Below, piece by piece: positions 21,770-42,407 of a stretch of 64,000 nucleotides of DNA. How positions within the stretch are numbered: the first letter of the stretch is position 1; the number at the start of each line of letters is the position of its first letter. This stretch comes from Syntrophales bacterium (GTDB lineage: Bacteria > Desulfobacterota > Syntrophia > Syntrophales > PHBD01), in NCBI GenBank assembly GCA_963668175.1, contig OY764159.1, positions 3,008,001 through 3,072,000 on the forward strand. Reading direction: 5' to 3'. A program made the translations under genes and the position numbers. The notes beneath the pieces are model-generated. The model saw only the letters and a list, made by a program, of their open reading frames with translations, was not told the DNA's origin and searched no databases.

Positions 21770-22164
21770 CACGCCATTTCCGGAATCTCGGACGGAGAGA
21801 GGACAACGCCGAGAAGCGTCTCGATCTTGAAGCCGCAATGGCCGTTCATACCGAACGGATCTTATGTCTCCCCCCATCTCAACGACTGTAATGTACATCA
21901 CATAATGGCGCTTTTCAAATATATTTCTATCGCCGCCGCCGATTTTTTCCGCGTATCCTGAAGGACCGAAGAAACCGGTCCGGATATCCATATCCCGACC
22001 CGTCCGACGGTCTTCGCCGGACCGCTTCCGAATGCATTTCGGGGGACCGGGCGTTTCCCTTTTCCGGATTGATTGTGAAGCCGATGGGATGCACAAGAAA
22101 AACAGCAAACAGAGGGGCTTGGCAGCAATGCGCGACCGTCGTCAGCGCCTGCGGAACGATTCCA

Positions 22165-23685
22165 TCACAGCAGCCTGTCCAGCTCGCAACGGATGGTCCG
22201 CGCCAGCGTTTCCATCACGTAGGGCTTGCGGACGCATGCCCCTGCGCCCAGGGCCTGCGCCTGCCGGATACGGTCCTGATGTGAAAAACCGCTCGCCAGG
22301 ACCGCCCGCTGCCGCGGACGGATCTTCGTAATCTCTCTATACGTATCCAGGCCGTCCATTCCGGGCGGCATGATCATATCGAGAAGTACGATGTCGACAC
22401 GGTTCCTTTGCAGATATCTCAGCGCCTCTTGGCCGCTGGCCGCCGTCGTTACCAGATAGTTCAGCCGCATGAGCATCCCCGCCGCCAGTTCGCGCTGCCC
22501 CTTGACATCGTCCACAACAAGTACGGATTCCGCCCGTCCCCGGTAAGCCGACGCCGTAAGCAGATTCCGCTCCGATGCCGCCTCGTCACGCCGGGCGGGG
22601 AGATAGAGGGCGACCGTCGTTCCCTTTCCGGGTTCGCTCTTGATATCGATATAGCCCGACTGCTCCGCGACGGTTTCCCTCACCAGGGCCGGCGACGGCC
22701 TGCACACATTCCCGGCAGGCGCGTGTTCGAAATATTTTCTTATTTCCCCCGGAGATAATCCCGTTCCCGTATCGGCAACCGTCAAAACGGCATACTCGCC
22801 TTCCGGTATGTCTTCGTATCCCCGGACAGGTTGGTCCAGATAGCGGTTCTCCGTGCGGATGGAGAGGAGTCCGCCCTCCGGCATGGCTTCGACGCCGTGC
22901 ACGACCAGGTTTGCCAGGATTTTGCCCAAAGCGGCGAGCGATCCGTTCACGTTGAGGAGGTCTATATCCAGCGCAGTCTGCACCCGGATACGATTACGCG
23001 TTCCTGTTAAGGCGGCGAATTCCGGAGACTTGATGTATTGACCGACTATTGCATTGAGATTCACGGTCTGTCCGGCCGGGCCGCCTTTCCGGGCCAGGGA
23101 CACAAGGTCCTGAACAATGGCCGCCGCCCGTTCCCCTCCTTCGACGATGTTGCCGGCATGCTCCCGAAGGGGGCTTCCCGCCGGAAGGTCGTGGAGCAGT
23201 AATTCCGCGTATCCCACGAGGATGCCCAGGGCGTTGTTCAGGTCGTGGGCGACTGCTCCGGCAACGATGCCCAAGGCTTCTGCCTTTTCGGCACGGTGAA
23301 GGCGCTCCAGGAACTCCGTCCGCTCAGTTTCCTCTATCTTGCGCCGGGTGACGTCCATCCACACGCCCTGCATCCCGTGATTGCCGCTGCCGTCACGGAC
23401 CGGCCAGCAGGAAGACAGCACCCACAATGTTTCCCCCGTCTTGCTTACGATCCGGTACTCCGCCTCTCCGACGTCCCCGTTCACGCATTGATAGAAGTGG
23501 CCCTTGAACGCTCCGGCGTCCTCGCCGTGGAGGAAATCGAAAAGGGACTGCCCCGTCATCTCTGCGGGAGAATAACCGAGGATGGGTTCCACGGCCGGAT
23601 TGACGTAGGTCACCTTCGCTTCCGCATCAGCGGTGTAAATCATGTCCCGGAAATTTTCTACAAGCCCGCGGTAATCCGTCTCCAT
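22165..23685 (-). CDS. PAS-HisKA-degenerate HATPase-receiver protein (probable pseudokinase)
   Basis: H-box AHDLNN and receiver DMIMP are intact; N-box reads NLVVHG and the F/G2 boxes are replaced. Confidence 0.85.
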   Translation of the reverse strand: METDYRGLVENFRDMIYTADAEAKVTYVNPAVEPILGYSPAEMTGQSLFDFLHGEDAGAFKGHFYQCVNGDVGEAEYRIVSKTGETLWVLSSCWPVRDGSGNHGMQGVWMDVTRRKIEETERTEFLERLHRAEKAEALGIVAGAVAHDLNNALGILVGYAELLLHDLPAGSPLREHAGNIVEGGERAAAIVQDLVSLARKGGPAGQTVNLNAIVGQYIKSPEFAALTGTRNRIRVQTALDIDLLNVNGSLAALGKILANLVVHGVEAMPEGGLLSIRTENRYLDQPVRGYEDIPEGEYAVLTVADTGTGLSPGEIRKYFEHAPAGNVCRPSPALVRETVAEQSGYIDIKSEPGKGTTVALYLPARRDEAASERNLLTASAYRGRAESVLVVDDVKGQRELAAGMLMRLNYLVTTAASGQEALRYLQRNRVDIVLLDMIMPPGMDGLDTYREITKIRPRQRAVLASGFSHQDRIRQAQALGAGACVRKPYVMETLARTIRCELDRLL

Positions 23686-24065
23686 TCTTACTCTTTCCAA
23701 CCTTTTTCGCCGCTTCGGCACGGGATGCAGAAACACCATATATAACGCGATGTATTCTTCCCGGTCGACGAGCCCGCAATATAAAAGATCAGGCTCATTG
23801 TGTGCATTACATATATATACTTAATATTATATTGTATTACTGATATCTTTCGCCTGATGCCGCCTTGATGCAATATCTTGTATTACATATTTCTTCATAA
23901 ATAAAGTCTTTTTTCCGAAAATATGCAGTATAAGCACCATCGGTCAGCGACGATTTTTGAATTGCCGATATTTTTTGACATCTATCGGGAACTTACGTCA
24001 GTTCGCGATTGACAGGTCCGCCGGCATCCGTTAAGGTACGGCTGTTTTTATAATTCCATTTCGAG

Positions 24066-24966: not shown

Positions 24967-25908
24967 TCAAGCCTCGGACTTGGCCGTTCTCGACCGCCAT
25001 TTCCCGCGAATATCGAGCCAGACCAGAAAAAGGATCATGAAGATGCTCGATACGGCCGCAGGAAGGGCCGCCTCCTCCGGAAAAAGCGACAACGCCAGGC
25101 CGCCCGCCAAGCCCTGATTCTTCATCGTCCCCAGGAGGACGAGGCTCACGACATCCGCGGGCTCAACCTTGAAGAGCGTGCCGAAGGCCTCAATGAGAAA
25201 CCCGAGCAGGAAAGTCGCCGCAAACAGGATCGCGGAGACAGGAAGGATGCCGAGAGGTTCCTTGAAGATCAGGTTCCGGTTCAGGCCGATCAGGGTGTAC
25301 AGGACGATGAAGAAACCCCAATCCGTCAGGAATCCTCTCCAGGAGCCGAGACGCTTGTCTGCACCGACCTTCAGGAGGATGCGCGACGCGGCCAGGGGCA
25401 GGATGATGAGGAGGCAGACGATCGTCAGCAATTTTACGGGACCCACGGCGGAGGTGCCGAGCAATCCCAGGAACACGGCGGGCAGGATAACGAGGGCCGC
25501 CAGATAGGATGCCACCGTACCCGCGAGTGAAAAAGGCACATTGCCGTTCAAAAGGCCGGAAAAGGGAATGACGGCCACGGCGGGCGGCGCGGCGGCCATG
25601 ATAACGCAGCCCGTCCAGAGATTCTCCCGGTCGATCAGCCAGGCGGCGCTTGCCAGAATGATGCCGCCCTGGAGGAGATAGCTCATGAGGATGCCGCCGA
25701 GGGACGGCATGATGAGCGACCGTGGCCTGTGGAAGAAATCGTTCGGGACGTTCATGGTCGCCAGGGCCATGATGAAGGCCAGGACGGGCAGGACGAGGGG
25801 TTCGCACCAGGACGCCGCTCCGGGGACGGAGAGCCCCAGGACGATGGCCATAAGCAGAATAACATTGCGGTTGCGCAACAGTCTGATCAGCACCATCCCG
25901 ACATGCAT
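24967..25908 (-). CDS. Bile acid:sodium symporter (BASS)-like transporter
   Basis: Roughly 9-10 TM segments, AAAPPAVAVIPF..LLNGN and GTMKNQGLA crossover-like motifs. Start uncertain. Confidence 0.7.
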   Translation of the reverse strand: MHVGMVLIRLLRNRNVILLMAIVLGLSVPGAASWCEPLVLPVLAFIMALATMNVPNDFFHRPRSLIMPSLGGILMSYLLQGGIILASAAWLIDRENLWTGCVIMAAAPPAVAVIPFSGLLNGNVPFSLAGTVASYLAALVILPAVFLGLLGTSAVGPVKLLTIVCLLIILPLAASRILLKVGADKRLGSWRGFLTDWGFFIVLYTLIGLNRNLIFKEPLGILPVSAILFAATFLLGFLIEAFGTLFKVEPADVVSLVLLGTMKNQGLAGGLALSLFPEEAALPAAVSSIFMILFLVWLDIRGKWRSRTAKSEA

Positions 25909-26105
25909 CCTTTCCCTGGATTCTCTCCGGGCGCTCCCGCCGGCCCTCTTCACGCGGGGAGCGGCGCCGCAGGCATCGCATCGAAAATGTTCTTCGCCGC
26001 CATTGACTTCGGCGGTCTCATCCCTTATATATCATCGCACTACGGAGAGTATCAAATCTGCTTGAACATGAACAGTATCGGCAGGACGGCGCACGGGAAA
26101 AAAGA

Positions 26106-26133
26106 CTTGACATATAATCATTATATCATATAA
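26106..26133 (+). promoter_or_regulatory. sigma70 promoter with embedded palindromic operator (copy A)
   Basis: CTTGACATATAATCATTATATCATATAA: TTGACA-N16-TATAAC containing the inverted repeat TATAAT-C-ATTATA; 27/28 identical to 32917-32944 on the minus strand. Confidence 0.8.
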
Positions 26134-26143
26134 CGTTTATATC

Positions 26144-26788
26144 ATGAAACCGACAAAATCGAGCGACGCGGTGATTAAGGTGCTTCTGGACCTGATCATG
26201 AAGGGGGAGATCAAGCCGGGCGACAAGCTCCCCTCCGCCGAAAACATCGCTAAAAGTACGGGCACGAGCGTCATAACGGCCCGGGAGGCCGTTCAAAACC
26301 TGGCGGCCATCGGCCTCGTGGAGATCATGCACGGCCGGGGGATATTCCTGACGGAAGGCGCACCCGTTATCGATGAGCTTCTGGAGGCCCGGAAGGTCAT
26401 CGAGTCGAGTACGGTCGTCATGGCGACGCGAAATCTCGATTCCGCCGGCCTCGATGCGATCGCTCGCCTCCTCGACAGGATGGAAGCAAGCCTTGCCGCC
26501 GGCAACACGGAGCTTTTCAGCGAACTCGATTACGAGTTTCACTTCTTCCTCGCCAAGGCATCGGGCAACCGCATCCTGCTCAAGACCCTGGAAAACATCA
26601 AGGAACTCCTCCGTTACCAGCAGTCCACGATCAACCGGCTGCCTTACATCGTCCACACCTCGGCGTTGCGGCACCGGGAGATATTCACCGCCTTGAAGAA
26701 CGGCAACGCCGAACTGGCGGGGTCCATCATGGACAGCCATATCAGCGAGGTGATCGACGCCTGGAAAAACAGCACCGCCCCCGTTTGA
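26144..26788 (+). CDS. GntR/FadR-family transcriptional regulator
   Basis: wHTH GEIKPGDKLPS..TAREAVQNL..GRGIF; FCD domain EARKVIE, DYEFH, SGNRIL, HREIF. Confidence 0.93.
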   Translation: MKPTKSSDAVIKVLLDLIMKGEIKPGDKLPSAENIAKSTGTSVITAREAVQNLAAIGLVEIMHGRGIFLTEGAPVIDELLEARKVIESSTVVMATRNLDSAGLDAIARLLDRMEASLAAGNTELFSELDYEFHFFLAKASGNRILLKTLENIKELLRYQQSTINRLPYIVHTSALRHREIFTALKNGNAELAGSIMDSHISEVIDAWKNSTAPV

Positions 26789-26863
26789 TTTTCTCACGGC
26801 GGCCCCGTCTTTCCCACTACGCCCCGCCCGGTTTTCCGCAAACCGCAACTTCTGAACAGCAAG

Positions 26864-28144
26864 TCAAGGTCCCTGATAGACGGGTATGACGTAAGGCCCT
26901 TCGGGAATGACGGCGACCCTGCGTTCGCCGTGCATCGCAACGCTCTCCCGGACGGCCGCCTCGACGTCAGAGACGATGCGGACGCCCGTCAACCGCCTTT
27001 CGTCCGGAGACAGTCCTTCCGTGTAAAGCCATACCCGGGCTTTCTTCATCGCCCGGACCTGCATTTCCGTCTGCCATTCGTCGACGGCGGCGGACCGCTT
27101 CCCCATAAGCTCCGCAAGGAGTCGTTCGGGACCCAGGCCGAGCAGCCGCTCCTGAGCCGCGGCGTATTCGGCACTCCCCAGCCCCTCCGAGCATTCCGAC
27201 GCGATGATGAGTGTCCCGCCGTCGGCTACGATGTCCATGGCGCCTACCATGCCCTTCACCGTCTGGTAGTAATTCTTGTCCAGGGGATACCCGGCCGCGC
27301 TCGCAAAGACCGTGAGGTACTTTCTTTTCACGGGAATCTCCGCGTAGGGACGGACGAAGGCGACGGCGTCCAGGTGGCTCGCCTCCATAGCGCCGAAATT
27401 GACGCAGGAGAGACGCCGTTCCTCGTCGATGACGCAGTTGACGGCGAAGCATTCGCCCACCATCCCGAGTATCGCCATCTGGGCGTCATGCAGGGGATTG
27501 CCTTCGAGGATGCAATTCGCCGCCCGGCAATCTTCCAGGATGCCGGCGGCATGGAGCATCCGGATGGTCTCTTCGTGGGCGATGCCCGGGGCGACGAGTT
27601 TCCGGCCGCCCGAGTATCCGGCCATGAAGTGCGGCTCGACAAGGCCCACGGCGATGCGCAAGCCCGCGTCGAGAAATCGGCGGTCGATCCGGACAGGTAT
27701 CCCGGAGACGTCGCCCAGGCGGCGGTGGTCTTCGTCTTTTCGGGCGTAGTGATTGACGACGGAAACCGTCTCCATGACCCAGTCGCTGCCGACCACCTCC
27801 CGCAACTCGTCGCCGAGATTCGGCCGGTGGAGGCCCGTAGCGACGAGAACGGTAATGGCTCCGGGCGCGATGCCGGCCGCAATCAGTTCCTTGACGAGTC
27901 CGGGCAGAACGATGCCGTTGGGAACGGGACGGGTGATATCGCAGATGAGGATGCAGGCGCTCTTGCAGCGACGGGCCACTTCGGTAAGGGGACGGCATCC
28001 GACGGGATTCTCCCATGCCGCGGCCACGCTTCTTTCCGGGTCGGCAAGGACAGGCATGGCCTTCTTGCGGATGACGTCGATCTCCAGGTCGGGACCTAGA
28101 TCGACGGCCAACCCCCCTTTGCCGTATTTCATGTCGATGCGCAC
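26864..28144 (-). CDS. larA: LarA-family nickel-pincer-nucleotide-dependent 2-hydroxy-acid racemase/epimerase
   Basis: DITRPVP, ATGLHR, EPHFMAGYSGGRK, downstream His (RMLH), GYPLDKNYYQTVKG, IPEGPY. Confidence 0.88.
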   Translation of the reverse strand: MRIDMKYGKGGLAVDLGPDLEIDVIRKKAMPVLADPERSVAAAWENPVGCRPLTEVARRCKSACILICDITRPVPNGIVLPGLVKELIAAGIAPGAITVLVATGLHRPNLGDELREVVGSDWVMETVSVVNHYARKDEDHRRLGDVSGIPVRIDRRFLDAGLRIAVGLVEPHFMAGYSGGRKLVAPGIAHEETIRMLHAAGILEDCRAANCILEGNPLHDAQMAILGMVGECFAVNCVIDEERRLSCVNFGAMEASHLDAVAFVRPYAEIPVKRKYLTVFASAAGYPLDKNYYQTVKGMVGAMDIVADGGTLIIASECSEGLGSAEYAAAQERLLGLGPERLLAELMGKRSAAVDEWQTEMQVRAMKKARVWLYTEGLSPDERRLTGVRIVSDVEAAVRESVAMHGERRVAVIPEGPYVIPVYQGP

Positions 28145-28211
28145 TGTCGGGCCTGTCTTTCGATAAAACGGCGATTATGAAAACGGCCTTCCGCCGCTTT
28201 TCTGTCCCGGC

Positions 28212-28916
28212 CTACATCCCCAGGTACGCCTTCCGCACCAGGTCGGACTGGAGAAGTTCGTCCCCCTTGCCGGAAAGGACGATCCGTCCCGTTTGTAATA
28301 CATACGCCCGGTGGGATATCTGGAGGGCTTCATGGACGTTCTGCTCCACCAGGAGGACCGTGACGCCGTTGCAGTTGATGTCCTGCACGATCCGGAAGAT
28401 TTCGCCGACGAGCTTGGGAGAAAGGCCGAGCGACGGTTCGTCCAAAAGAAGGAGCGACGGATGGGACATGAGCCCCCGCGCGATGGCCAGCATCTGCTGC
28501 TCGCCGCCGCTGAAGGTGTCGGACCGCTGGTCTTTCCTTTCCTTCAGGATCGGGAAGAGCTTGAACACTCTCTCCAGCATGGATGCGATCTCCTCCTTCG
28601 ATTTCAGGGCGTAGGCCCCGAGGAGCAGGTTGTCCAGGACGGAGAGGCGGCCGAAGAGGCGCCGGCCCTCCGGAATCATGGATATCTTCTTTTTCACGAT
28701 GTCGTAAGGCGGCATCCGGTGGATCGGCGTGTCGCCGAAGACGATCTCGCCCTGCGTCGGCTGAAGGAGCCCCGCGATGGTCTTCACGAGGGTCGTCTTG
28801 CCGGCGCCGTTCGAGCCTACGAGGCTGACGATCTCCCCCTGCTCGATCCGGAGGGATACGTCCGTGATGGCCAACAGGCCCTTGTAACCGACGGAAATGT
28901 TATTGACAGACAGCAC
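28212..28916 (-). CDS. Liv-type ABC transporter ATP-binding protein (LivF-like)
   Basis: GSNGAGKTT, SGGEQQMLAIAR, LDEPSLGL, LVEQN, AYLG. Confidence 0.92.
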   Translation of the reverse strand: MLSVNNISVGYKGLLAITDVSLRIEQGEIVSLVGSNGAGKTTLVKTIAGLLQPTQGEIVFGDTPIHRMPPYDIVKKKISMIPEGRRLFGRLSVLDNLLLGAYALKSKEEIASMLERVFKLFPILKERKDQRSDTFSGGEQQMLAIARGLMSHPSLLLLDEPSLGLSPKLVGEIFRIVQDINCNGVTVLLVEQNVHEALQISHRAYVLQTGRIVLSGKGDELLQSDLVRKAYLGM

Positions 28917-29640
28917 GATACTTGTCCCCCAGATAGGCTTGAATGACTTCCTGGCAGCTCACGACGTCCTTCGGCGGCCCCTCCATGATCTTCTTCCCCT
29001 CGTTCAGGACGATCACCCGGTCCGATATCTCCATCACCGCTTCCATGACGTGCTCGACGACGACGAGCGTCATGCCCTGGTCGCGGATCTTCTTGATGAG
29101 GTCGATGATCTCCCGCAGTTCCACCGGGTTCAGGCCCGCCATGGACTCGTCCAGCATCAGGAGCTTGGGCTGGGTCGCGAGCGCCATGGAGACTTCGAGG
29201 CGCTTCTTGTCGGCGATGGTCAGCTCCGTTCCGAGAAAGGACTTCTTCTCCATGAGGCCGGTAAAGCAGAGGACCTCCATGGCTTTCTCCGTAGCCGGGC
29301 CTGTCCTGCCGTAGCGGAGCAAGGCGCCGGTGACGACGTTTTCCAGGACCGTCATGTCGCTGATGATCTGCACGACCTGGAACGTCCTCGCGATGCCCAG
29401 TTTGCAGACCTTGTCGGCCCGCATGCGGTAGATGTCCCTGCCGTAGAACGAGGCCTTGCCCGTATCGGGCTTGTAGAAACCCGTGATGCAGTTGAAGAGC
29501 GTCGATTTGCCCGCGCCGTTCGGCCCGATGATGCTGACGATCTCCCCTTCCTCGATGAAGAAGTCGATCTCGTAATTGGCGGCCAGACCGCCGAACCACT
29601 TCGTCATCCCTTTGACGTCCAGACAGATGGCTTTGCTCAT
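28900..29640 (-). CDS. Liv-type ABC transporter ATP-binding protein (LivG-like)
   Basis: FGGLAA, GPNGAGKST, GIARTFQ, LDESMAGLN, VEHVM. Start reassigned to MSKAI. Confidence 0.92.
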   Translation of the reverse strand: MSKAICLDVKGMTKWFGGLAANYEIDFFIEEGEIVSIIGPNGAGKSTLFNCITGFYKPDTGKASFYGRDIYRMRADKVCKLGIARTFQVVQIISDMTVLENVVTGALLRYGRTGPATEKAMEVLCFTGLMEKKSFLGTELTIADKKRLEVSMALATQPKLLMLDESMAGLNPVELREIIDLIKKIRDQGMTLVVVEHVMEAVMEISDRVIVLNEGKKIMEGPPKDVVSCQEVIQAYLGDKYRAVCQ

Positions 29641-30602
29641 TTCACCCTGCTTCCTAATTTCGCGAAGAATCCCCAGACCCCCTGGGGCTGGTAAACCGAA
29701 ATGATCGTGATCATGAAACCGTAGATCAGCATGTCCACGCCCGTGCCCTGGTGCCCCAGCCAGACCCGCGTCACTTCCGCAATCGGGATCAGGACGGCGG
29801 CCCCGATAACCGGACCCATGATCGTTCCTGCGCCGCCCAGCATGGAGAGCAGCACGATCTGGACGGAGATGGCGAGAAGCATCACGCTTTCCGGATCGAT
29901 GTAGAGCACGTACTGGGCATAGAACGTCCCGGCCATGGCGGAGAGGAAGGCGCTGATCATGATGGCCATGAGACGGTAGCGGACCACGTTGACGCCCAGG
30001 ACTTCCGCCACGTCGTGGCTCTCCTTGATCGCCCGGAAGTAGTAGCCCATCTTCGACGTCGCCACGAAATAACAGATGGCGATGCCGATGAGGAGAAAGG
30101 CCAGGATGATGTAATAGTAGGGTACCTTGGACGTGTGGAACATGAAATTGGCGAGCGACTCGTCGAGCATCGGCAGCGATATGCCCTCCGCGGCGTTCAC
30201 GAGCTTCCAGTTGTTGAAATGGGTCCGCACGATCTCGGCGAAGGCGATGCTCGCGATGGCGAAGTAGTGCCCCCGCAGGTTGGAGCAGGGATAACCGATG
30301 GCCGCGGCGACCAGGGCGGCCATGACGCCCCCGGCGATCAGCCCCAGCCAGGGATTGACCTGGTACGTCACGAGGAGATAGGAAGACGTATAGGCCCCGA
30401 TCCCGAAGAAGGCCGCCTGTCCGAAGGAAAACATGCCGGCGTACCCGCCCATGATGTTCCAGCCCGTACCCAGCAGGGCGTACATAAAAACGAGGATCAT
30501 GATCTGGAGGGGAAAGATGTCCGTGACAACGAGCGGAAAGGCCAGGAGTACCGCCAGCACTCCGATCACCACCGCTATTTGTTTGGTCGTAAATTTTTTC
30601 AT
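29637..30602 (-). CDS. Liv-type ABC transporter permease (LivM-like)
   Basis: GWNIMGGYAGMFSFGQAAFFGIGAY, LRGHYFAIAS, LGGAGTIMGP. Confidence 0.92.
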   Translation of the reverse strand: MKKFTTKQIAVVIGVLAVLLAFPLVVTDIFPLQIMILVFMYALLGTGWNIMGGYAGMFSFGQAAFFGIGAYTSSYLLVTYQVNPWLGLIAGGVMAALVAAAIGYPCSNLRGHYFAIASIAFAEIVRTHFNNWKLVNAAEGISLPMLDESLANFMFHTSKVPYYYIILAFLLIGIAICYFVATSKMGYYFRAIKESHDVAEVLGVNVVRYRLMAIMISAFLSAMAGTFYAQYVLYIDPESVMLLAISVQIVLLSMLGGAGTIMGPVIGAAVLIPIAEVTRVWLGHQGTGVDMLIYGFMITIISVYQPQGVWGFFAKLGSRVK

Positions 30603-30605
30603 AGG

Positions 30606-31466
30606 TCACCACCCCAACAGGCCCTGGGGCCTGATCCAGATCGTAATGAGATAGATCCCGAAGACGATGGCGTACTTGTAAGCGGGATCGAAATAGAAAC
30701 CGCCCAGCGTCTGCGCCAGTCCGACCAGGATACCCGCGATGAAGGCCCCCTCGATGCTTCCGAAACCGCCCAGGGCGACGATGGAAAAGGCGATGGTGCC
30801 GAAGAGCCCCCCGACCTGCGGATAGATATAATAGTAGGTTGAGAGAAACGCCCCGGCGACGCCGACCAAGGCCGCCCCGATGCCGAAGGACAGGGAGTTG
30901 ATGCGCTCCGTGTTGATGCCCATAAGGAGGGCCGACTCCCGGTCCATCTCGGTGGCTAAAATCGCCTTCCCCGTCTTCGTCTTTTTAAGAAAAAGGAAGA
31001 GACAGACCGAGGTGACGATGCTGCCCACCGATGCGACCGTCTTGGGGACACTGAGCTGGATGTCGCCGAATTCCCACGTACCCTGAAGGATCGTCGGGGG
31101 TATGAGGCGGAAATCGGGCGTCCACAGGTAGACCGCCAGGTTGGCAAGAAAGATGCTGATACCGAAGGTGACGACAAGCTGGGCGAGCATCGGCCCTTTC
31201 ATCACCTTGCTCACGATGAAGCGGTAGATCAGGATCCCCATGATGAAAAGGAGCAGGAAGCATATGGGAATGGAAAAAAGGGGGTCCAGGCCGTACAGTG
31301 TGAACAGCCAGAAGGACGTGAACATCCCGATCATCAGGAAATCGCCGTGGGCGAAATTGACGATGTTCATAACGCCCCAGATCATCGTAAGACCGATGGC
31401 GATCAGCGAATACATGAAGCCTATGAGAAGGCCGTTGACAAGCTGCTGGAGTAACTGCTCTGGCAT
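30606..31466 (-). CDS. Liv-type ABC transporter permease (LivH-like)
   Basis: QQLVNGLLIG, VNFAHG, LGGFGS, RPQGLLG. Confidence 0.92.
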   Translation of the reverse strand: MPEQLLQQLVNGLLIGFMYSLIAIGLTMIWGVMNIVNFAHGDFLMIGMFTSFWLFTLYGLDPLFSIPICFLLLFIMGILIYRFIVSKVMKGPMLAQLVVTFGISIFLANLAVYLWTPDFRLIPPTILQGTWEFGDIQLSVPKTVASVGSIVTSVCLFLFLKKTKTGKAILATEMDRESALLMGINTERINSLSFGIGAALVGVAGAFLSTYYYIYPQVGGLFGTIAFSIVALGGFGSIEGAFIAGILVGLAQTLGGFYFDPAYKYAIVFGIYLITIWIRPQGLLGW

Positions 31467-31546
31467 GATTTCGAACCTCGCATGCTCCCGGCCGGGCGGG
31501 AGCTTGGCACAGTTCCCGACCGGCCGGTTCGGACTTGCTTATGCCG

Positions 31547-32812
31547 TTATTTTTTCCACCCCGGAAACGGCCACACAACGTTCTTGGCAGCCGACTCGAA
31601 GGGCCATATCGTTACGTAGTCCATGTTTTGCACCTGGACCAGGCCGCCCTGGGCGAAGATATTCTGGTGCGACTGGGGATCGAACTTGACACCCTTCCAG
31701 GGGTAGATGACCTGGTCGCCGGGGATATTCGTAGCGAGCAGGGCTTTCACGACCGCTTCGCTCTCCGTCGTCTTGGCGCGGTTGATCGCATCGGCGAGGA
31801 CAAACGGCGCGGTGAAGCTCCGGGCCGCGTTCTCGCTCATCTCGATCCCGTATTTCTTCTTGAAGAGAGCGGCCACCTTGCCGACGAGGGGTTTCTTCTT
31901 GGCAAGGTCGAGCGCGAAGGTCGAACGGACGATGATGTTGTTCCCGTCGGCCTTGACCGCCGGCAGGTAACCCGGCTCGATGTAGCCGGCCATGGTCAGG
32001 ATGCCCTGGGGCTTGAAGCCCATTTCCTTGAAGGTCTTCGTGAAGAGGATGGCGTCGGTGATATAGGAGGCATGCATCAGGACGTCCGGCTTGCTCTTGA
32101 TCAGGGTGCCGACCTCGCTCGTCACGTCGGTGGCGTTGGCCGGATAGGAGATGTCGGCAACGACCTGGTACCCGAAGTCACCGGCGTATTTCTTGGCGTA
32201 CTTGCCGACGTTGGCACCGAACTCGGTGTTTTCGTACAGAAGGGCGACTGTTTTCACCTTCTTGCCTGTCTTCTTTTCGAGGTCCTTCAGGTACTGGAAC
32301 CAGTCACGGGCGAAGATCGCGTCGTGGGGGCTGACCCTGAAGAAATACTTAAAGTTCCTCTCGGTGAGCGTCGGCGAGGATGAGTCGGAGCAGACGTACG
32401 GCACTTTCAGCCTTTCCGTGGCCTGGCTCGCCGTCTTGGTCACCGAGCTCTGATAGGCCCCGATGATCGCCGACACCTTTTCCTGGGTGATCAGGCGTTC
32501 CGCCTCGGACATGCCGTTCTTCGGATCGCCCTTCGTGTCGGCATAGACGATTTCCAGCTTCGCGCCACCAAGGTTCGGCAATCCCCCCGATTTCGCCATG
32601 GGCAGGTTGAGGTCCTTTCCGTATTTGCCGTTGATGATGTCCACCGCCAGGTCGACGCCGCGCTTACAGTCGAGCCCGGTGGAGGCGATGTTTCCCGACA
32701 GGGGGTAGACGGCCCCGATCTTGATGACTTTCTGCTGCGCCATAACTCCCGTGGAGAAGGCAAACAGCACTACCAGAGACAGACAGACACCGAACCATAC
32801 TTTGCATCTCAT
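31547..32812 (-). CDS. Liv-type ABC transporter substrate-binding protein
   Basis: GGGAGG RBS, signal peptide, IKIGAVYPLSG, IIGAYQSSVT, YFFRVSP, YENTEFG. Confidence 0.92.
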   Translation of the reverse strand: MRCKVWFGVCLSLVVLFAFSTGVMAQQKVIKIGAVYPLSGNIASTGLDCKRGVDLAVDIINGKYGKDLNLPMAKSGGLPNLGGAKLEIVYADTKGDPKNGMSEAERLITQEKVSAIIGAYQSSVTKTASQATERLKVPYVCSDSSSPTLTERNFKYFFRVSPHDAIFARDWFQYLKDLEKKTGKKVKTVALLYENTEFGANVGKYAKKYAGDFGYQVVADISYPANATDVTSEVGTLIKSKPDVLMHASYITDAILFTKTFKEMGFKPQGILTMAGYIEPGYLPAVKADGNNIIVRSTFALDLAKKKPLVGKVAALFKKKYGIEMSENAARSFTAPFVLADAINRAKTTESEAVVKALLATNIPGDQVIYPWKGVKFDPQSHQNIFAQGGLVQVQNMDYVTIWPFESAAKNVVWPFPGWKK

Positions 32813-32903
32813 CCTGGCACCTCCCTCAAATATGGGTTTCTTTGAATCGGTTAAGGGTGGAACAACGCTTCTTCGGGTATTTATTTCATGTTCTCTTGGT
32901 TTC

Positions 32904-32944
32904 GTATGATCATACTTTATATGATATAATGATTATACGTCAAG
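32904..32944 (-). promoter_or_regulatory. sigma70 promoter with embedded operator (copy B) plus a 12-bp palindrome
   Basis: Minus strand reads CTTGACGTATAATCATTATATCATATAA, followed by the perfect palindrome GTATGATCATAC (32904-32915). Confidence 0.8.
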
Positions 32945-33017
32945 CTGTTTTTTCCGCAACGTCTGTCGGTGGTTAGAGCATAACGGCGGTTTTATCGCGG
33001 CGGCGTCGCCGCCGCTT

Positions 33018-34346
33018 TCATTCGATCAGGACGGTCTGGATGTCCATCACGTTCGTGCCCGTGGGCCCCGTGGTGAAGAGGCCGCCCTCGGCCTTGAAGA
33101 AGGTATAGGAGTCGTTGTTCGTGAGGTATGATTCGGCCGACATTCCCATTTTCGCCGCCCGTTCAAGCGTAGCCCCGTCGGCGAAGGCCCCGGCGGCGTC
33201 CGTCGGACCGTCCGTCCCGTCCGTACCGGCGGAGAGGAGCGTGATGCCCTCCGTCCCGGCAATGGCTTCGGCAAAGGCCAGCGCCAGTTCCATGTTCCGC
33301 CCTCCCCTGCCGCCGCCCCGGACGGCAACCGTCGTTTCGCCGCCGGCGATCAGGCAGATTTTCCTGCCCTGGTTGCCTGCGAGAGTCCGCTTGGCCTCAC
33401 GCGCCTTCCCGGCCAGCCACCGGCCGGCATCGGCTGCCTCGCCCGTGAGCTCCGCCGTGAGGATCTCCGTTTCGCAGCCGGCCTCCCGGGACTTGGCCGC
33501 AGCGACACCCAGGGCGATCCGGCTGTTACCGATAATGATGTTTTTCACTTTCGCGAAGACGGTGTCCCCGGCCTTCGGCGTTTCCGGAAGTTCCCGGCGG
33601 ACGCCCTTCTCCAGGGTTTCCGTCACGGCGCGGGGAATCCTGCCGCGCAGTTTATATCGGTCGATGACGGCCAGGGCGTCCCCGTAGGTCGTCTCGTCCG
33701 GCGCCGTGGGGCCCGAGGCGATCACGTCGAGGGGGTCGCCGATCACGTCGGAAAGGATGAGGGATAGGACCTCCGCCGGATAGGCGATCTCCGCGAGCCT
33801 CCCGCCCTTGACGCGCGAGACATGCTTCCGGACGGTATTCAATTCCCTAATGTCGGCGCCGGCCGTAAGCAGCGCCTGGGTAAGTTCACGCTTTTCCTGA
33901 AGAGTGACAGGGGGAAGCGGCGCGGCCAAAAGGGCCGATCCGCCGCCGGAGACGAGACACAAGACGAGCGTCCGTTCGTCGGCCTCCTGCAGGGCGCGGA
34001 CGATTTCGACGGTTGCGTTCAGGCCGTTTTCGTCGGGTACGGGATGGGCCGCCTCGAAACACGCGATGGCCCCGGGCAGGGCCTCGGTGCCGAAGTGGCC
34101 GTATTTGGTGACGATCTTGCCGCCCGTCGCGATATCGAAGGATGTATCCGCCACGGCCTTCGCCATGGGATAGGCCGCCTTGCCGAAACCGACGACGAGA
34201 AGCCGGTTGAAATTTCCGCGGCGGCGGGTCTCGCCGATCCGGCCGAGTTCATTTTTAACCAGGGTGTAGGGGTCCACGGCTTTGATGACGGCCTGGAAGA
34301 TATCGGCGAGCAGCCGGCGGTTCTCTTCAGGGATTGTCCGGTCCAT
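33018..34346 (-). CDS. Glycerate 2-kinase (GckA/TtuD, MOFRL family)
   Basis: VVGFGKAA, EAAHPVPD, SGGGSAL, RKHVSRVKGG, SDVIGD, GGETTV, GGRNMEL, GTDGTDGPTDAAG, TGPTGTNVMD. Confidence 0.92.
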   Translation of the reverse strand: MDRTIPEENRRLLADIFQAVIKAVDPYTLVKNELGRIGETRRRGNFNRLLVVGFGKAAYPMAKAVADTSFDIATGGKIVTKYGHFGTEALPGAIACFEAAHPVPDENGLNATVEIVRALQEADERTLVLCLVSGGGSALLAAPLPPVTLQEKRELTQALLTAGADIRELNTVRKHVSRVKGGRLAEIAYPAEVLSLILSDVIGDPLDVIASGPTAPDETTYGDALAVIDRYKLRGRIPRAVTETLEKGVRRELPETPKAGDTVFAKVKNIIIGNSRIALGVAAAKSREAGCETEILTAELTGEAADAGRWLAGKAREAKRTLAGNQGRKICLIAGGETTVAVRGGGRGGRNMELALAFAEAIAGTEGITLLSAGTDGTDGPTDAAGAFADGATLERAAKMGMSAESYLTNNDSYTFFKAEGGLFTTGPTGTNVMDIQTVLIE

Positions 34347-34594
34347 AAGCGTCGATGAGCCCTCCGATCCGGTCCATCGTGAAGACTGGCGCGAAGACGG
34401 GGTTTAAGGGAATACGGTACGCCGCGGGCTGATGAAAAACTGTTGTTGCTGCCTTTTTCAATTTACGCGAGGAATCGTATTCAGTCAATGTCAAAATTTC
34501 TCGTGCAATCGGGTGCCCCTATCATTTATAATCTTGTCGTCTCCACGGGACATATCCTTTCTCCCGTATTTCCTTCAACCGAGGTGATGGCGCA

Positions 34595-35758
34595 TTGGAA
34601 TTCATGGGTTTCCGCCGTCCGGACGGTAAAGTCGGCATTCGCAACGAGGTTATCGTCATCCCGTCGGTCGCCTGCGCGAACCGCGTCGCCCGCGGCATTG
34701 CGCAGCTTGCGTCCGGGTCGGTCTGGGTCGAGCACCAGCACGGCTGCACGCAGCTCGGCGCCGACGCGGAACTGACCAGACGGGTCCTTGTCGGGCACGG
34801 CACCCATCCCAACGTCGCGGGCGTTGTCGTCGTGGGCCTGGGTTGCGAGACCATACGGGCCGAGGACATCGCCGCCGACATTGGGCGTATCGCGCCCTAT
34901 AAACCCGTCCGCCTCGTCAATATTCAGATGGAAGGCGGGTCTGTCAAGGCCGTTGCCGCCGGGGCCGCCGCCGCGAGCACCCTCCTGGAAGAGGCGTCCC
35001 GCCTTGCGCGCACACCCGTAGACGCCACCGAACTGATTCTCGGCACGGAATGCGGCGGTTCGGACGCCTGCTCGGGCCTCTCGGCCAACCCGGCCCTGGG
35101 AACGGCCTGCGACCTTCTGATCGAGGCCGGAGGGACGGTTATCCTTGCGGAAACGACCGAACTCATCGGCGCCGAACATCTCCTCGCCGCCCGGGCCGTG
35201 AACGAACGCGTCGCCGCCCGCTGCTTCGAGGTGATCGCAGCCTGCGAAGACGCCGCGAAGAGGATGGGCGTCGACATGCGGGGCGGCCAGCCCACGCCCG
35301 GCAATATCGAAGGGGGGCTTTCTACCATCGAGGAGAAGTCCCTCGGCTGCATCTACAAGGCCGGCAGGCACCCCCTCCGCGATGTTATCGACTACGCCGC
35401 CCCCGTTGCGGGTAAGGGCCTCATCTGGATGGACACGCCGGGCCACGACATCGAACAGATGACGGGCATGGTCGCCGGCGGCTGCCATCTCATCGCCTTC
35501 ACGACGGGCCGGGGCACCTGTTGCGGCTCGCCCGTGGCGCCGACGATCAAGATAGCCTCCAACACGGCTATGTACAACCATATGAAGGACAACATGGACA
35601 TGAACGCCGGGACGATTGTCTCCGGCGACGAGACGGCAGCGGAAGTCGGCCGCCGGATTTTCGCCGAGATCCTGGCCGTGGCGTCTGGCAGACGATGCCG
35701 CGCGGAGATCCTCGGGTTCAACGACTTCGCCATACGTAGAATAGGACCGAGCATGTAG
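34595..35758 (+). CDS. UxaA/GarD/SuyB-family dehydratase or lyase, large (catalytic) subunit
   Basis: GFRRPDGKVGIRN, HQHGC, HPNV, GLGCE, ECGGSD, NPALG, GGLSTIEEKSLG, MDTPG, FTTGRG. TTG start after GAGGTG. Confidence 0.92.
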   Translation: MEFMGFRRPDGKVGIRNEVIVIPSVACANRVARGIAQLASGSVWVEHQHGCTQLGADAELTRRVLVGHGTHPNVAGVVVVGLGCETIRAEDIAADIGRIAPYKPVRLVNIQMEGGSVKAVAAGAAAASTLLEEASRLARTPVDATELILGTECGGSDACSGLSANPALGTACDLLIEAGGTVILAETTELIGAEHLLAARAVNERVAARCFEVIAACEDAAKRMGVDMRGGQPTPGNIEGGLSTIEEKSLGCIYKAGRHPLRDVIDYAAPVAGKGLIWMDTPGHDIEQMTGMVAGGCHLIAFTTGRGTCCGSPVAPTIKIASNTAMYNHMKDNMDMNAGTIVSGDETAAEVGRRIFAEILAVASGRRCRAEILGFNDFAIRRIGPSM

Positions 35759-35771
35759 GGGAACCGGGAGG

Positions 35772-36068
35772 ATGGCGATGCCGAAAGAGATAGCCCTCGT
35801 CATGGAAGCCCATGACAACGTGGCCACGGCCCTGGAAGAGATCGCGCCGGACACGGAGGTCACGTTGACCGTCGCGGGCGTGTCCGTCCGGGTCAGGATT
35901 TCCGAACGCATCCCCTTCGCCCATAAATTCGCCCTGGCGGACATTCCGGAGGGCGCTCTCGTCGTCAAATACGGGCAGGCCATCGGTGCGGCCACGGCTG
36001 CAATCCCAGCCGGCCGCCACGTGCACATCCATAACCTCGAAAGCAGACGGGGACGGGGGGACCGATAG
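35772..36068 (+). CDS. UxaA/SuyA-family SAF-domain small subunit
   Basis: DNVATAL, IPFAHKFAL, VKYGQAIG, GRHVHIHNLES. Confidence 0.92.
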   Translation: MAMPKEIALVMEAHDNVATALEEIAPDTEVTLTVAGVSVRVRISERIPFAHKFALADIPEGALVVKYGQAIGAATAAIPAGRHVHIHNLESRRGRGDR

Positions 36069-36144
36069 TTCCCGGCGATTCTTTATTCACCTTCAAAGAA
36101 AGACGATCGCATTCACCGATGCGAAAGCGGAAAGGACTTGCGTT

Positions 36145-37020
36145 ATGGAAAAGATCGGCTGGATCGGTACGGGCGTCATGGGAAATGCGATGTGCCGTCA
36201 CATCATGAACAAGGGTTATGCCTTGTCCGTCTATAACCGGACGAGGGACAAATGCGACGAGCTGTGCGGATGCGGGGCCGTATGGTGCAGCAGCCCCGGC
36301 GACGTGGCCGCCCGAAGCGACATCGTCTTTACGATGGTGGGCGAGCCCCCCGACGTCGAGGAAGTCATCCTCGGCGAAGGCGGCATTCTCGCGAAGGCCC
36401 GGCCCGGCTCCGTCATCGTGGACATGACGACCTCGGAGCCTTTCCTCGCACAGCGGATATACCGGGAGGCGAAGGCCAAATCCGTGGCGTCCCTCGATGC
36501 CCCCGTTTCCGGCGGCGACATCGGCGCCCGGGAAGGAACGCTCGCCATCATGGCGGGCGGCGACGAAACGGCCTTCAAGCGGGTCCTGCCGGTGTTCGAA
36601 CTGATGGGCAAAAACATCGCCCTCATGGGCGGACCGGGCATGGGGCAGCATACGAAGATGAGCAACCAGATCCTCATCGCCGCCAACATGATCGGCGTCG
36701 TCGAGGCCCTCCTTTACGCCCGCAAATCAGGCCTGGACCCGGCGCGCGTCATCGACGTCGTCGGCCAGGGCGCAGCGGCTTCCTGGTGTCTGAACCAGCT
36801 CGGACGGCGGATTCTCAAGGGCGATTTCGCGCCCGGTTTCTATATCCGCCATTTCGTGAAAGACATGGGCATCGCGCTTGCCGAGGCGAGGAGAATGAAG
36901 CTTTCGCTGCCGGGGCTCGCGCTCGTCAACCAGTTCTACCTCGCCGCCGTGGCGGAAGGTCTGGAGACGGACGGAACGCAGGCCCTCTACAAGGTCCTGG
37001 AAAGAATGAATACCCTGTAG
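36145..37020 (+). CDS. NAD(P)-dependent beta-hydroxyacid dehydrogenase (tartronate semialdehyde reductase / 3-hydroxyisobutyrate dehydrogenase family)
   Basis: IGWIGTGVMG, DAPVSGG, LAIMAGG, GQHTKMSNQ, FVKDMGIA. Confidence 0.9.
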   Translation: MEKIGWIGTGVMGNAMCRHIMNKGYALSVYNRTRDKCDELCGCGAVWCSSPGDVAARSDIVFTMVGEPPDVEEVILGEGGILAKARPGSVIVDMTTSEPFLAQRIYREAKAKSVASLDAPVSGGDIGAREGTLAIMAGGDETAFKRVLPVFELMGKNIALMGGPGMGQHTKMSNQILIAANMIGVVEALLYARKSGLDPARVIDVVGQGAAASWCLNQLGRRILKGDFAPGFYIRHFVKDMGIALAEARRMKLSLPGLALVNQFYLAAVAEGLETDGTQALYKVLERMNTL

Positions 37021-38913: not shown

Positions 38914-39035
38914 TTGAATTACATTTAACAACATTTTATCTCATGTTTCAAGAAAAAAAGCGCGGAGCGCACAGCCGGAGAGTCTTCAGTCAACCTAATC
39001 GTTTGTCCTGTAAGTTGTTTCGCCGATTGCCAGTT

Positions 39036-40259
39036 CTACTTTCCGGATGGATTTGCCGGATGCGGCAGGAGTCGTTGGTCTTGAACGAGGGTTCGCGCCA
39101 GCGTTTCGGCGACAAGGGTGTTGCCCCTCTCATTGAAGTGCAACTCGTCGTAGAACGCCGACGTATCCTTCGGAATCTGCGACGCCAGGTCGATGCACAT
39201 CACGCCTCGCGTGCGGCAGACGTCGAGGAGCGTTTCGTTGTAGCGCTTCATCCCTTCCATCAGTGCCCTGGCCGTGTAGTAGCGCCGGGACTTGAGGCTC
39301 TCGATCCACCCGCACCACAGGAGGTCGTTCTCCCTGTCCGTAAGATCGGCCCGCCACATGGAAGGCTGGGTCATGAAGAGAATCCGGATCGACCGGGCTT
39401 CGGCCATGTCGATGATTGTGTTCAGGTTCCTGCGGTATTCCCCCAGGGCCGGCCCCAGGTCGGGCAGGGTGTCGACAAATGCCGCCGCTTCCTTTCTCTG
39501 TTTCCGCAGATTGACGAACATGCCGCCCGCCTGGTCCTGATAGAGGTCCTTGTGGGTGCGTTGCTCCTTCCATTTCTTGTAGAGGCTGCCGATGGCGGAC
39601 TCGTCGTAATACCCGAACCGGAGACGGTATTTCCCGGGGAAATAGGGAACGACCGTGAAAGCCCCGCGGATGAGCCTTTGCTTCCAGGCTTCGTAGTGGT
39701 CGAGGAAATCAGGGTCGTACTTGTCGTCTTCGATGAGTCGCCGGAGGAGATCGTTGCCGCCGGTAAGTATAACGACCATATCGATTTTCGGCAACTGAGG
39801 GACGAGGTACTTCATGTGCATGTAGTGTTCACGCGTGTCGAGGCCGCTCTTGCCTGCGCTTCCGACCCAGACGGAGCCGGGACGGACCGCGTTGATCCTG
39901 CGTTGCAGGGCATAGGGCCAGGAGAGTTCCTGATCGATATAGAGGCACTCCGTCGTGCTGCCGCCGACCGTCAATATCTTGAAGACCTGCCCTTTCGGGA
40001 TATCGTCGCCCCGCAATCCCTCCCTGTTCGTCAGAAACCGTCCCTCCTTCGTCACGCCGGGCATAACCCCCGCCGCCGGCCGGTAAACGGTCTTCATATT
40101 CGGCGGCCAGACGTAATATTTGTTGTCCTTCTGATGAGCCAGGTAGAAACGCAGGCCGAATTCGCCCATCACAAGCGATAAGACAAGCCCGAAGACGACG
40201 AGGATCAGGCGGTAGAGGTTCTCGCGGTTGAATATCGTTTTCAAGATACGCTTCAGCAT
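39036..40259 (-). CDS. Membrane-anchored SGNH/GDSL hydrolase-family protein
   Basis: N-terminal TM, KILTVGGSTTE (block I), GGNDL (block III), FYDELHFN (DxxH). Confidence 0.8.
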   Translation of the reverse strand: MLKRILKTIFNRENLYRLILVVFGLVLSLVMGEFGLRFYLAHQKDNKYYVWPPNMKTVYRPAAGVMPGVTKEGRFLTNREGLRGDDIPKGQVFKILTVGGSTTECLYIDQELSWPYALQRRINAVRPGSVWVGSAGKSGLDTREHYMHMKYLVPQLPKIDMVVILTGGNDLLRRLIEDDKYDPDFLDHYEAWKQRLIRGAFTVVPYFPGKYRLRFGYYDESAIGSLYKKWKEQRTHKDLYQDQAGGMFVNLRKQRKEAAAFVDTLPDLGPALGEYRRNLNTIIDMAEARSIRILFMTQPSMWRADLTDRENDLLWCGWIESLKSRRYYTARALMEGMKRYNETLLDVCRTRGVMCIDLASQIPKDTSAFYDELHFNERGNTLVAETLARTLVQDQRLLPHPANPSGK

Positions 40260-40316
40260 ATGATGTCAAGGCGGTCTCCGCCTTCCCGTGAAAGCCCGTC
40301 GGGTTGTCTTAAAGTA

Positions 40317-40826: not shown

Positions 40827-40862
40827 GCCCCCTCCTTCGAAGAAATTCCATTTGAGGAATCC

Positions 40863-41558: not shown

Positions 41559-41580
41559 GGGGATGATTCGGCGTATCCGT

Positions 41581-42387: not shown

Positions 42388-42407
42388 GGCTCCCGCCTCC
42401 TTCAGCG

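Follow-up and report, generated by a model that had tools for sequence, protein, structure and literature searches.

Organization of the Locus

The DNA analysed here, called the window throughout, is a 64,000-nucleotide stretch (C1:3008001-3072000) of the one-contig, 4.57 Mb genome of a Syntrophales bacterium. It carries a gene cluster in which a homologue of the nickel-pincer enzyme LarA (LarAH) is found together with a Liv-type ATP-binding cassette (ABC) importer, a kinase of the MOFRL family, a transcription regulator, and an enzyme of the UxaA family that is split over two genes. Gene families were called from a listing of the open reading frames (ORFs) and from Pfam and NCBIfam scans of the window ORFs. 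The layout, in window coordinates, is as follows.

24967-25953, minus strand: membrane protein, weakly BASS/SBF-like (TIGR00841, 32.5 bits against a cut-off of 326; Pfam SBF, E=0.0014)
26094-26136, plus strand: candidate promoter/operator element, copy upstream of the regulator gene (inverted-repeat pair I1)
26144-26788, plus strand: GntR/FCD (FadR-subfamily) transcription regulator (Pfam GntR 2.6e-15, FCD 6.4e-26)
26864-28144, minus strand: LarA homologue of the LarAH2/Sar-like clade (Lar_N, E=2.6e-50, 170.9 bits; LarA_C, E=1.7e-19, 70.7 bits; both over cut-off)
28212-28916, minus strand: LivF-like ABC ATPase (ABC_tran; LivF model, 252 bits)
about 28900-29640, minus strand: LivG-like ABC ATPase (ABC_tran; LivG model, 208 bits, match from residue 24 of a 264-aa reading)
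29637-30602, minus strand: LivM-like ABC permease (BPD_transp_2, 6.9e-40)
30606-31466, minus strand: LivH-like ABC permease (BPD_transp_2, 5.4e-37)
31547-32812, minus strand: periplasmic solute-binding protein, Peripla_BP_6 (Pfam, 3.5e-56)
32914-32956, minus strand: candidate promoter/operator element, second copy, upstream of the binding-protein gene (inverted-repeat pair I1)
33018-34346, minus strand: MOFRL/DUF4147 kinase, glycerate 2-kinase homologue (DUF4147, 3.4e-84, 282.4 bits; MOFRL, 5.2e-40, 136.4 bits)
34595-35758, plus strand: UxaA/GarD-family large (catalytic) subunit (GD_AH_second and GD_AH_C)
35772-36068, plus strand: SAF small subunit, 98 aa (Pfam SAF, 1e-7; matches positions 5-78 of the galactarate dehydratase model)
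about 36145-37020, plus strand: beta-hydroxyacid dehydrogenase, tartronate-semialdehyde-reductase-like (NAD_binding_2 and NAD_binding_11)

The LivG start is taken as the ATG that overlaps the LivM stop, and the dehydrogenase start as the Met preceding the Rossmann motif.

The importer operon is complete, with a Peripla_BP_6 binding protein, two BPD_transp_2 permeases, and two ABC ATPases, and it ends in the LarA homologue, as had been stated in the original prediction, which was made from the sequence alone. The kinase gene, whose MOFRL assignment also stands, lies upstream of this operon on the same strand. Divergent from it, on the plus strand, is the UxaA/SAF/dehydrogenase operon; the predicted genes are present there, but the large subunit precedes the small one and not the reverse. 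The regulator does belong to the predicted GntR/FCD family, but its gene lies on the plus strand, convergent with the LarA gene, and a 240-aa minus-strand ORF at the same position has no family match. The BASS-like transporter that had been counted among the genes is a weak call, with low scores and no counterpart of the ORF among 160 related loci, and its membership in the locus is doubtful. We take the genes of the cluster to be conserved genes and not chance ORFs, since 80 relatives of the LarAH (55-69% identity) and 80 of the UxaA large subunit (58-77% identity) were found. Neither an aldolase nor a lar biosynthesis family (larB, larC, larE) occurs among the window ORFs scanned against Pfam, in agreement with the original prediction.

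The Racemase and Its Cofactor

In the alignment, residues His106, His172, Lys182, and His198 of the window LarAH occupy invariant columns; that is, the pair of catalytic histidines, the lysine that holds the cofactor, and the histidine that binds nickel are all present. The motifs DITR, EPH, GGRK, and YQTVK align with PDB 9EID, and the whole series that had been described at the outset was found again (DITR, GLH, EPHFM, GGRK, His198, and YYQTVK). To judge from these residues, the racemase looks catalytically complete. The genes for nickel-pincer nucleotide (NPN), its cofactor, had been sought elsewhere in the genome, and they are there: larC (222 bits), larE (342 bits), and larB (306 bits) are adjacent at C1:3712477-3715041, about 640 kb from the locus, all above curated cut-offs. 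The window LarAH is the genome's only Lar_N match and thus the only visible client of the cofactor.

The curated models do not name a substrate. The NCBIfam lactate racemase model, NF033504, is not reached (335.8 against 460 bits), nor are the named malate and LarAH10 equivalogs (284.1 against 500, 255 against 462, and 225.2 against 540 bits). The best solved relative, matching over the whole length with 332 bits, is LarAH2/Sar of Isosphaera pallida (LarA_Ip; PDB 9EID/9EIA), described as a broad-spectrum short-chain racemase that prefers L-lactate and 2-hydroxybutyrate and takes L-glycerate next (bioRxiv 10.1101/2024.11.28.625916). The two proteins have in common the catalytic His pair, the NPN-binding Arg, Lys, and His, and the W-Q pair at the C-terminal specificity positions. 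They differ after the second His, where LarAH2/Sar has Leu-Met and the window LarAH Phe-Met, and at QWQL, which reads EWQT in the window. Their surroundings differ as well: the LarAH2/Sar group was listed in 2020 with no conserved gene context (group 2, Table S1, PMC7583248), whereas the window LarAH closes an importer operon beside a kinase gene.

At the four specificity positions named in PMC11770544 the window LarAH has F, M, W, and Q, which suggests a pocket of the lactate or short-chain type, not of the gluconate-epimerase or malate type. A Gln at the LarA1 T359 position is also found in LarAH43 of Enterocloster asparagiformis, compared here by its description, which is reported to prefer glycerate; according to the same source, lactate-racemase-type enzymes racemise glycerate (PMC11770544). 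By analogy with these in vitro data on its relatives, the window LarAH may interconvert L- and D-glycerate. The authors of the assays call the cellular role of racemase activity on glycerate, and on most other substrates, unknown (PMC11770544). The term "glycerate racemase" gave no match in the literature, and PMC11796402 does not mention glycerate, a kinase, a dehydratase, or gene context.

Importer, Racemase, and Kinase in Other Genomes

A scan of one genome per species yielded 80 loci with LarAHs 55-69% identical to that of the window, and the window proteins were run against them by tblastn. Many of the contigs are short, so that absences are uninformative in the counts that follow. The importer and LarAH core is found in 22 of the 80 loci, with binding proteins 70-87% identical to that of the window. 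A MOFRL gene is nearby in 16 loci, a beta-hydroxyacid dehydrogenase in 11, and the UxaA pair in 5. GntR homologues occur in 11, of which four (L037, L039, L040, and L051), at 55-70% identity, adjoin the importer. Clustering of the neighbouring ORFs added larC (17 loci), a larE-like gene (15), and larB (14), mostly in Alpha- and Betaproteobacteria, an FAD-linked oxidase (9), and a hydroxypyruvate-isomerase-like TIM-barrel gene (5).

In a quick maximum-likelihood tree of the LarAHs, the contexts with importer, kinase, dehydrogenase, or isomerase fall in three groups with differing gene orders: a 20-row set that includes the window together with Syntrophaceae, Acidobacteriota, and Nitrospirota; a 9-row clade (support 99); and a 5-row clade (support 100). 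These contexts come from Nitrospirota, Acidobacteriota, and Thermodesulfobacteriota; the LarAHs with an FAD-oxidase or lar-gene context branch in other parts of the tree. Kinase-bearing loci without UxaA use the same binding protein (79-87% identity). There is good support for the view that the importer, the racemase, and the kinase work together as one conserved unit on a small 2-hydroxy acid. The LarA/ABC block and the UxaA/kinase block had also been expected to co-occur elsewhere, and they do so in related loci.

The best solved relative of the kinase is 2B8N, "glycerate kinase, putative" (329.5 bits); two equivalogs, both archaeal models, are not reached (230.9 against 550 and 221.9 against 670 bits). 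For the dehydrogenase the top model is TIGR01505, tartronate semialdehyde reductase, which at 276.1 bits, against a cut-off of 340.75, still stands above the models for HIBADH, threonate dehydrogenase, and sulfolactaldehyde reductase. Among solved structures it matches 3W6U (239 bits) and the tartronate semialdehyde reductase 1YB4 (208 bits). The kinase, tartronate semialdehyde reductase, and hydroxypyruvate isomerase make up the classical glycerate pathway and, to our knowledge, L-glycerate alone among the compounds of that pathway needs a C2 racemase. Glycerate is suggested as the substrate mainly because these three genes recur with LarAH and only L-glycerate would call for the racemase. 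The likeness to the known pathway (GlxR/GarR, hydroxypyruvate isomerase, and the MOFRL kinase TM1585 of Thermotoga, which is 2B8N) lies in the recurrence of all three families with LarAH and the importer. The window locus differs in that it has no glyoxylate carboligase or aldolase feed and has a racemase and an importer instead; the curated cut-offs are also missed. No description of the combination of importer, racemase, kinase, and dehydratase was found in literature searches. All the components come from known families; what is novel is their combination and the physiological role that it suggests.

Transport, Regulator, and Candidate Operator

The binding protein is most like SAR11_0655 among solved proteins (8WCH, 318 bits), a member of the HAAT family reported to bind L-pyroglutamate, a small alpha-substituted carboxylate, at nanomolar affinity (PMC11485210). 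This relative suggests that the branch takes small alpha-substituted carboxylates and not branched-chain amino acids. The neighbours differ: those of SAR11_0655 are described as 5-oxoprolinase genes (PMC11485210), whereas those of the window protein are the racemase and the kinase, with no oxoprolinase.

A 43-nucleotide element is common to the promoters of the regulator and the importer; the two copies form the inverted pair I1 and are 86% complementary. Its 21-nucleotide core, TATAATCATTATATCATATAA, is identical at both promoters, with 0 copies expected by chance (no match in 100 shuffles), and it holds two overlapping perfect palindromes. The element is likely to be the operator of the regulator, a candidate proposed from its sequence and position; a shared operator would mean autoregulation together with control of the importer-racemase operon. 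Sigma-70-like hexamer pairs lie at the importer promoter (32943-32914) and in front of the kinase gene (34488-34460). The kinase/UxaA intergenic regions of Syntrophaceae-like relatives (L025, L027, L028, L096, L104, and others) carry a strongly conserved sequence, ...CTTCGTCAATTTGTTTTTTAT..TTGCCAAATTGATTATAATAGC, which has the look of a promoter plus an upstream site; its counterpart in the window, ATCATTTATAATC, is no more than loosely similar.

The Split UxaA-Family Enzyme

The domains of the UxaA/GarD superfamily (GD_AH_second, GD_AH_C, and SAF) are complete in the window but spread over two genes, and the large subunit is the genome's only GD_AH_C match. Its closest solved relative is Escherichia coli GarD (PDB 6U7L, 218 bits), with which it has in common the GD_AH_second and GD_AH_C domains and four aligned cysteines. 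GarD and UxaA are one-piece proteins, whereas in the window the SAF domain is a separate protein encoded downstream, and there is no aldolase partner in the locus; the galactarate dehydratase equivalog is missed (241 against 731 bits). Homologues of the large subunit, 387 aa long and 70-77% identical, are very numerous in Syntrophales and Negativicutes, under the names "altronate dehydratase large subunit" or "UxaA family hydrolase", and a search of the ESM Atlas returned only generic "UxaA family hydrolase" clusters. In the phylum-wide search, which did not sample the 70-77% metagenome group, 80 of 401 genomes have a UxaA homologue, the best outside the window genome being 56% identical. A role as a replacement for dihydroxy-acid dehydratase was considered and rejected, since the genome holds a normal IlvD (465 bits).

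Gene context was taken from 80 metagenome loci (58-77% identity), in 67 of which a SAF gene adjoins the large subunit. It follows the large subunit in the 70-77% group, as in the window, and precedes it in the 58-68% group. Aldolases of the DHDPS or HpcH type accompany only the latter group, which looks like ordinary sugar-acid catabolism. These contexts bear on the first pathway that had been put forward for the window, in which a C5 or C6 sugar acid is epimerised and dehydrated, after which an aldolase from another part of the genome would split the product into pyruvate and tartronate semialdehyde, the latter to be reduced and phosphorylated. The gar operons likewise group a dehydratase, tartronate semialdehyde reductase, and a glycerate kinase, and the window brings together genes resembling all three. 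The genome also has an HpcH-family aldolase, the only one of that type in it. That gene, however, lies 1.26 Mb from the locus, the aldolase-bearing UxaA subgroup has the opposite subunit order, and the binding protein belongs to a branch that binds small carboxylates. The racemase pocket, of the lactate type, is not that of the gluconate epimerases as described in PMC11770544. The aldarate or aldonate route is weakened by these results, and we consider it very improbable.

The four cysteines separate the window enzyme from the other two-subunit member of the family, sulfolactate sulfo-lyase (SuyAB). We aligned 129 sequences: that of the window protein, those of 120 close homologues, and 8 taken from other loci. 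Cys27, Cys51, and Cys84 are kept in 127 of them and Cys153 in all 129; all four align with cysteines of GarD and are retained together in the window large subunit and 126 others. The two exceptions, from loci L208 and L209, lack three of the four, are 36-37% identical to the window protein, and have the small gene before the large one. The four cysteines are reported to be conserved superfamily-wide except in sulfolactate sulfo-lyase, with SuyAB at that time the sole heteromeric member (PMC6336799). Their retention places the window enzyme with the dehydratases, SuyAB being compared through published descriptions, and the sequences suggest that the SuyAB-like type is a separate branch. SuyAB does resemble the window enzyme in having a SAF small and a large subunit and in its reported chemistry, in which the C2 proton and a C3 leaving group are lost to give pyruvate (PMC6336799, PMC6278857). 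It differs in the cysteines and in gene order, suyA being upstream of suyB in Desulfovibrio DF1 (PMC6278857).

This comparison is central to a second alternative, sulfonate respiration. Here sulfolactate, or 2,3-dihydroxypropane-1-sulfonate (DHPS) after oxidation by a DhpA-like enzyme, would be racemised by LarAH and split by a SuyAB-like lyase to pyruvate and sulfite, which dissimilatory sulfite reductase would reduce. The genome has dsrAB (574.6 bits). SuyAB is a two-subunit, (R)-specific enzyme, and most sulfolactate in nature is believed to be the (S) form (PMC11193023). The known racemisation uses two dehydrogenases, SlcC and ComC (PMC10507020), a route that is unavailable here, as the genome has no ComC-type Ldh_2 gene, and the DhpA described from Desulfovibrio DF1 is in the same family as the window dehydrogenase (PMC6278857). 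In addition, a TauE/SafE-family membrane protein, along with a conserved 336-aa protein that has no Pfam family, follows the UxaA-SAF-dehydrogenase operon in four related loci (L096, L110, L111, and L122). Neither of these two has a homologue above 60 bits in the window genome, and for TauE this counts against the sulfonate route. So do the four cysteines, which SuyAB is reported to lack (PMC6336799), and the existence in the same phylum of the separate, cysteine-poor type with the small gene first. The kinase would be left unexplained, no sulfolactaldehyde dehydrogenase is present in the locus, and the same binding protein serves kinase-only loci. Among plasmid records, 470 match the large subunit, all below 60% identity, and none of the 40 matches listed is annotated as a sulfolactate lyase; sulfolactate in combination with a nickel-pincer enzyme gave no literature match. 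The sulfolactate route is thus weakened too, and we hold it to be improbable for this locus. One-step racemisation, the other option first proposed, fares differently in its two versions: sulfolactate loses ground to the four cysteines and the kinase-only loci, and glycerate fits best of the options then offered.

A third alternative keeps the dehydratase and changes the substrate to a C4 dihydroxy acid. LarAH would epimerise C2 of a tartrate isomer, of threonate or erythronate, or of 2,3-dihydroxybutyrate, and the dehydratase would form oxaloacetate, 4-hydroxy-2-oxobutanoate, or 2-oxobutanoate from the epimer that it accepts. In vitro epimerisation by LarAHs is reported for tartrates and for every stereoisomer of 2,3-dihydroxybutyrate (PMC11770544). 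Tartrate is the four-carbon aldarate, which suits a large subunit whose nearest solved relative is GarD, and the dehydratase-type four-cysteine active site is retained. The W and Q of the window pocket are nevertheless of the lactate type, whereas malate- and tartrate-active enzymes are reported to have H/Q and K (PMC11770544). Oxaloacetate or 2-oxobutanoate as the product would leave the kinase and the reductase unexplained, and loci with kinase, reductase, and isomerase but without UxaA share the same binding protein. We give this route a poor chance, if a slightly better one than sulfonate respiration.

Recurrent Pairing of LarA and UxaA Families

The full window arrangement is found in the genome loci L025, L027, and L028 and in the metagenome loci L096, L104, L105, L106, L111, L114, L122, and L123, with partial forms on shorter contigs. 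In L024, L126, and L141 the UxaA genes diverge directly from the binding-protein gene, with no kinase between them, and in L093/L094 UxaA is about 6 kb from the kinase. The split pair joins the importer and LarAH core only in Syntrophaceae-like relatives, in these three arrangements.

At least five other contexts likewise have LarA-superfamily and UxaA-family genes side by side, as follows. In five loci (L098, L099, L100, L108, and L119), a different LarAH lies directly upstream of a large-subunit homologue of 70-73% identity. This LarAH, 27% identical to that of the window and malate-racemase-like, reaches none of the NCBIfam cut-offs, and its residues at the positions of W358 and T359 of lactate racemase are Val and Ala; in L098 a TRAP permease gene and a split transketolase come before it. 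In seven loci a UxaA pair of 65-69% identity adjoins a "Group 22" NPN isomerase, whose 563 bits exceed the cut-off, and in Dethiosulfatarculus (L043) a Sar-like LarAH adjoins a 44% pair. Plasmids give further cases. In Sulfitobacter faviae (L176, 6653-10719) a fused UxaA of the altronate dehydratase family is followed by a LarA-domain gene and larC, and in Sporomusa termitida pSPTER (L177, 2215-8161) a TctCBA transporter is followed by a LarA-domain gene, SAF, and the UxaA large subunit, with a GntR gene nearby. Finally, L208 (7625-13453; genome G079, same phylum) has a sigma-54 activator, SAF, the UxaA large subunit, an MFS transporter, a LarAH5-family gene, and DctA. Its LarAH5-family protein exceeds the "malate racemase" cut-off with 543.6 bits, and its large subunit, with three of the four family cysteines replaced, looks SuyAB-like in sequence. 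The racemase might act on sulfolactate, an isostere of malate. In the table of PMC7583248 (Table S1), COG2721 is listed with LarAH group 5 and no function is proposed for the pair.

These contexts point to a functional link between the two families. UxaA, GarD, and SuyAB are described as removing a proton from C2 and a leaving group from C3 (PMC6336799), and the pairing can be understood because C2 is the very carbon that LarA enzymes invert. That nickel-pincer C2-inverting enzymes serve stereospecific downstream enzymes is supported by the pairing in several unrelated LarAH lineages. The general logic of the original prediction, a racemase that feeds a stereospecific lyase, thus holds up, and it is its sulfolactate and aldarate versions that are weakened.

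Proposed Function

We propose, tentatively and with rather less than an even chance for the scheme as a whole, that the locus serves the regulated uptake and catabolism of a small 2-hydroxy acid, likeliest DL-glycerate, with the split UxaA enzyme as a second exit to pyruvate. What the sequences show is the family to which each gene belongs, the conserved catalytic residues, the presence of the cofactor genes, the repeated occurrence of the gene sets, and the candidate operator common to two promoters; the identity and stereochemistry of the substrate and the use of glycerate by the dehydratase are what we infer. The Liv-type importer, whose promoter has the 21-nucleotide candidate operator core in common with the adjacent GntR/FCD gene, would take up the acid. 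NPN made by larC-larE-larB, elsewhere in the genome, would load the LarAH, which would invert C2 and so interconvert the L and D forms. The D form would then have two exits. In the first, the MOFRL kinase would convert it to 2-phosphoglycerate; in the second, the two-subunit, four-cysteine dehydratase would form pyruvate by beta-elimination of the C3 hydroxyl. The dehydrogenase, like tartronate semialdehyde reductase, would connect glycerate and tartronate semialdehyde. Kinase-only, dehydratase-only, and combined gene sets all fit two exits from one hub.

Several points weigh against this proposal. There is no energetic difference between the two exits, which look like duplicates of each other. 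As the kinase and the dehydrogenase fall below every NCBIfam equivalog cut-off, the specificity of neither is assured. We know of no UxaA-family enzyme that dehydrates glycerate. Close homologues of the large subunit are found beside the 27%-identical LarAH or alone, so that the substrate common to these enzymes is not necessarily glycerate. L-pyroglutamate, the ligand of the binding protein's closest solved relative, is not a hydroxy acid, and the Isosphaera racemase, closest to that of the window, favours lactate over glycerate.

Three more such points also favour an alternative in which two unrelated modules stand side by side, the importer, LarAH, and kinase serving lactate, glycerate, or another short 2-hydroxy acid, and the UxaA pair and dehydrogenase an unrelated dihydroxy acid, their adjacency being an accident of one lineage. 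First, the loci in which UxaA joins the importer are close kin (importer 80-94% identical), that is, one lineage with rearrangements and not independent cases. Second, most UxaA homologues of 70-77% identity stand alone among unrelated genes, such as an aminotransferase and Crp, a PrpR-type sigma-54 activator and an SDR gene, MFS, or transketolase. Third, the 21-nucleotide core was not found, with up to 3 mismatches allowed, in the kinase/dehydratase intergenic region, so that co-regulation of both blocks is unsupported. On the other side, UxaA is kept by the importer in three arrangements, including the direct divergence without the kinase, and the families meet in the other contexts described above. 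We regard an accidental neighbourhood as unlikely, although it deserves more weight than any of the three substrate alternatives above. Taken together, the interpretation given in the original prediction is partly supported.

It is tempting to go further and to propose that the split, four-cysteine UxaA enzyme is a glycerate dehydratase, an activity not assigned to the family, which with the racemase would open a way from either enantiomer of glycerate to pyruvate that needs no ATP. On a wider view, nickel-pincer enzymes that invert C2, of at least four LarAH lineages, would have been recruited repeatedly as stereo-adapters for UxaA-family lyases, and the "malate racemase" next to the cysteine-poor, SuyAB-like genes of sulfate-reducer-like genomes (L208) may be a one-step sulfolactate racemase. 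This extended proposal is speculative, and we think it more apt to be wrong than right, if somewhat less doubtful than a chance adjacency of two modules.

Other Features of the Window

Four multi-PAS hybrid histidine kinases with receiver domains lie within 24 kb (2924-5842, 14151-17102, 17164-20253, and 22165-23739), and a gene for an HDOD-domain protein (20903-22108) adjoins this group. A complete TRAP transporter (DctP, DctQ, and DctM) comes after a cupin gene at 6435-10230 and shows no link to the LarA locus. Downstream of the cluster, at 38943-42609, three successive plus-strand ORFs (412, 466, and 364 aa) match nothing in Pfam at E<=1e-8 and sit in the stretch of lowest G+C in the window (0.534 at 40-42 kb).

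Implications

The locus and its relatives in several phyla provide a concrete hypothesis, the catabolism of L-glycerate by way of a racemase. If true, this would be the first plausible cellular role for the LarAH racemase family, and the UxaA family would gain a new class of substrate. The pairing of LarA and UxaA genes, until now to be found only as an entry in a supplementary table (PMC7583248, Table S1), would be explained as well. With a LarAH5-family gene near SuyAB-like genes in L208, the pairing may in addition bear on sulfonate respiration in sulfate reducers.

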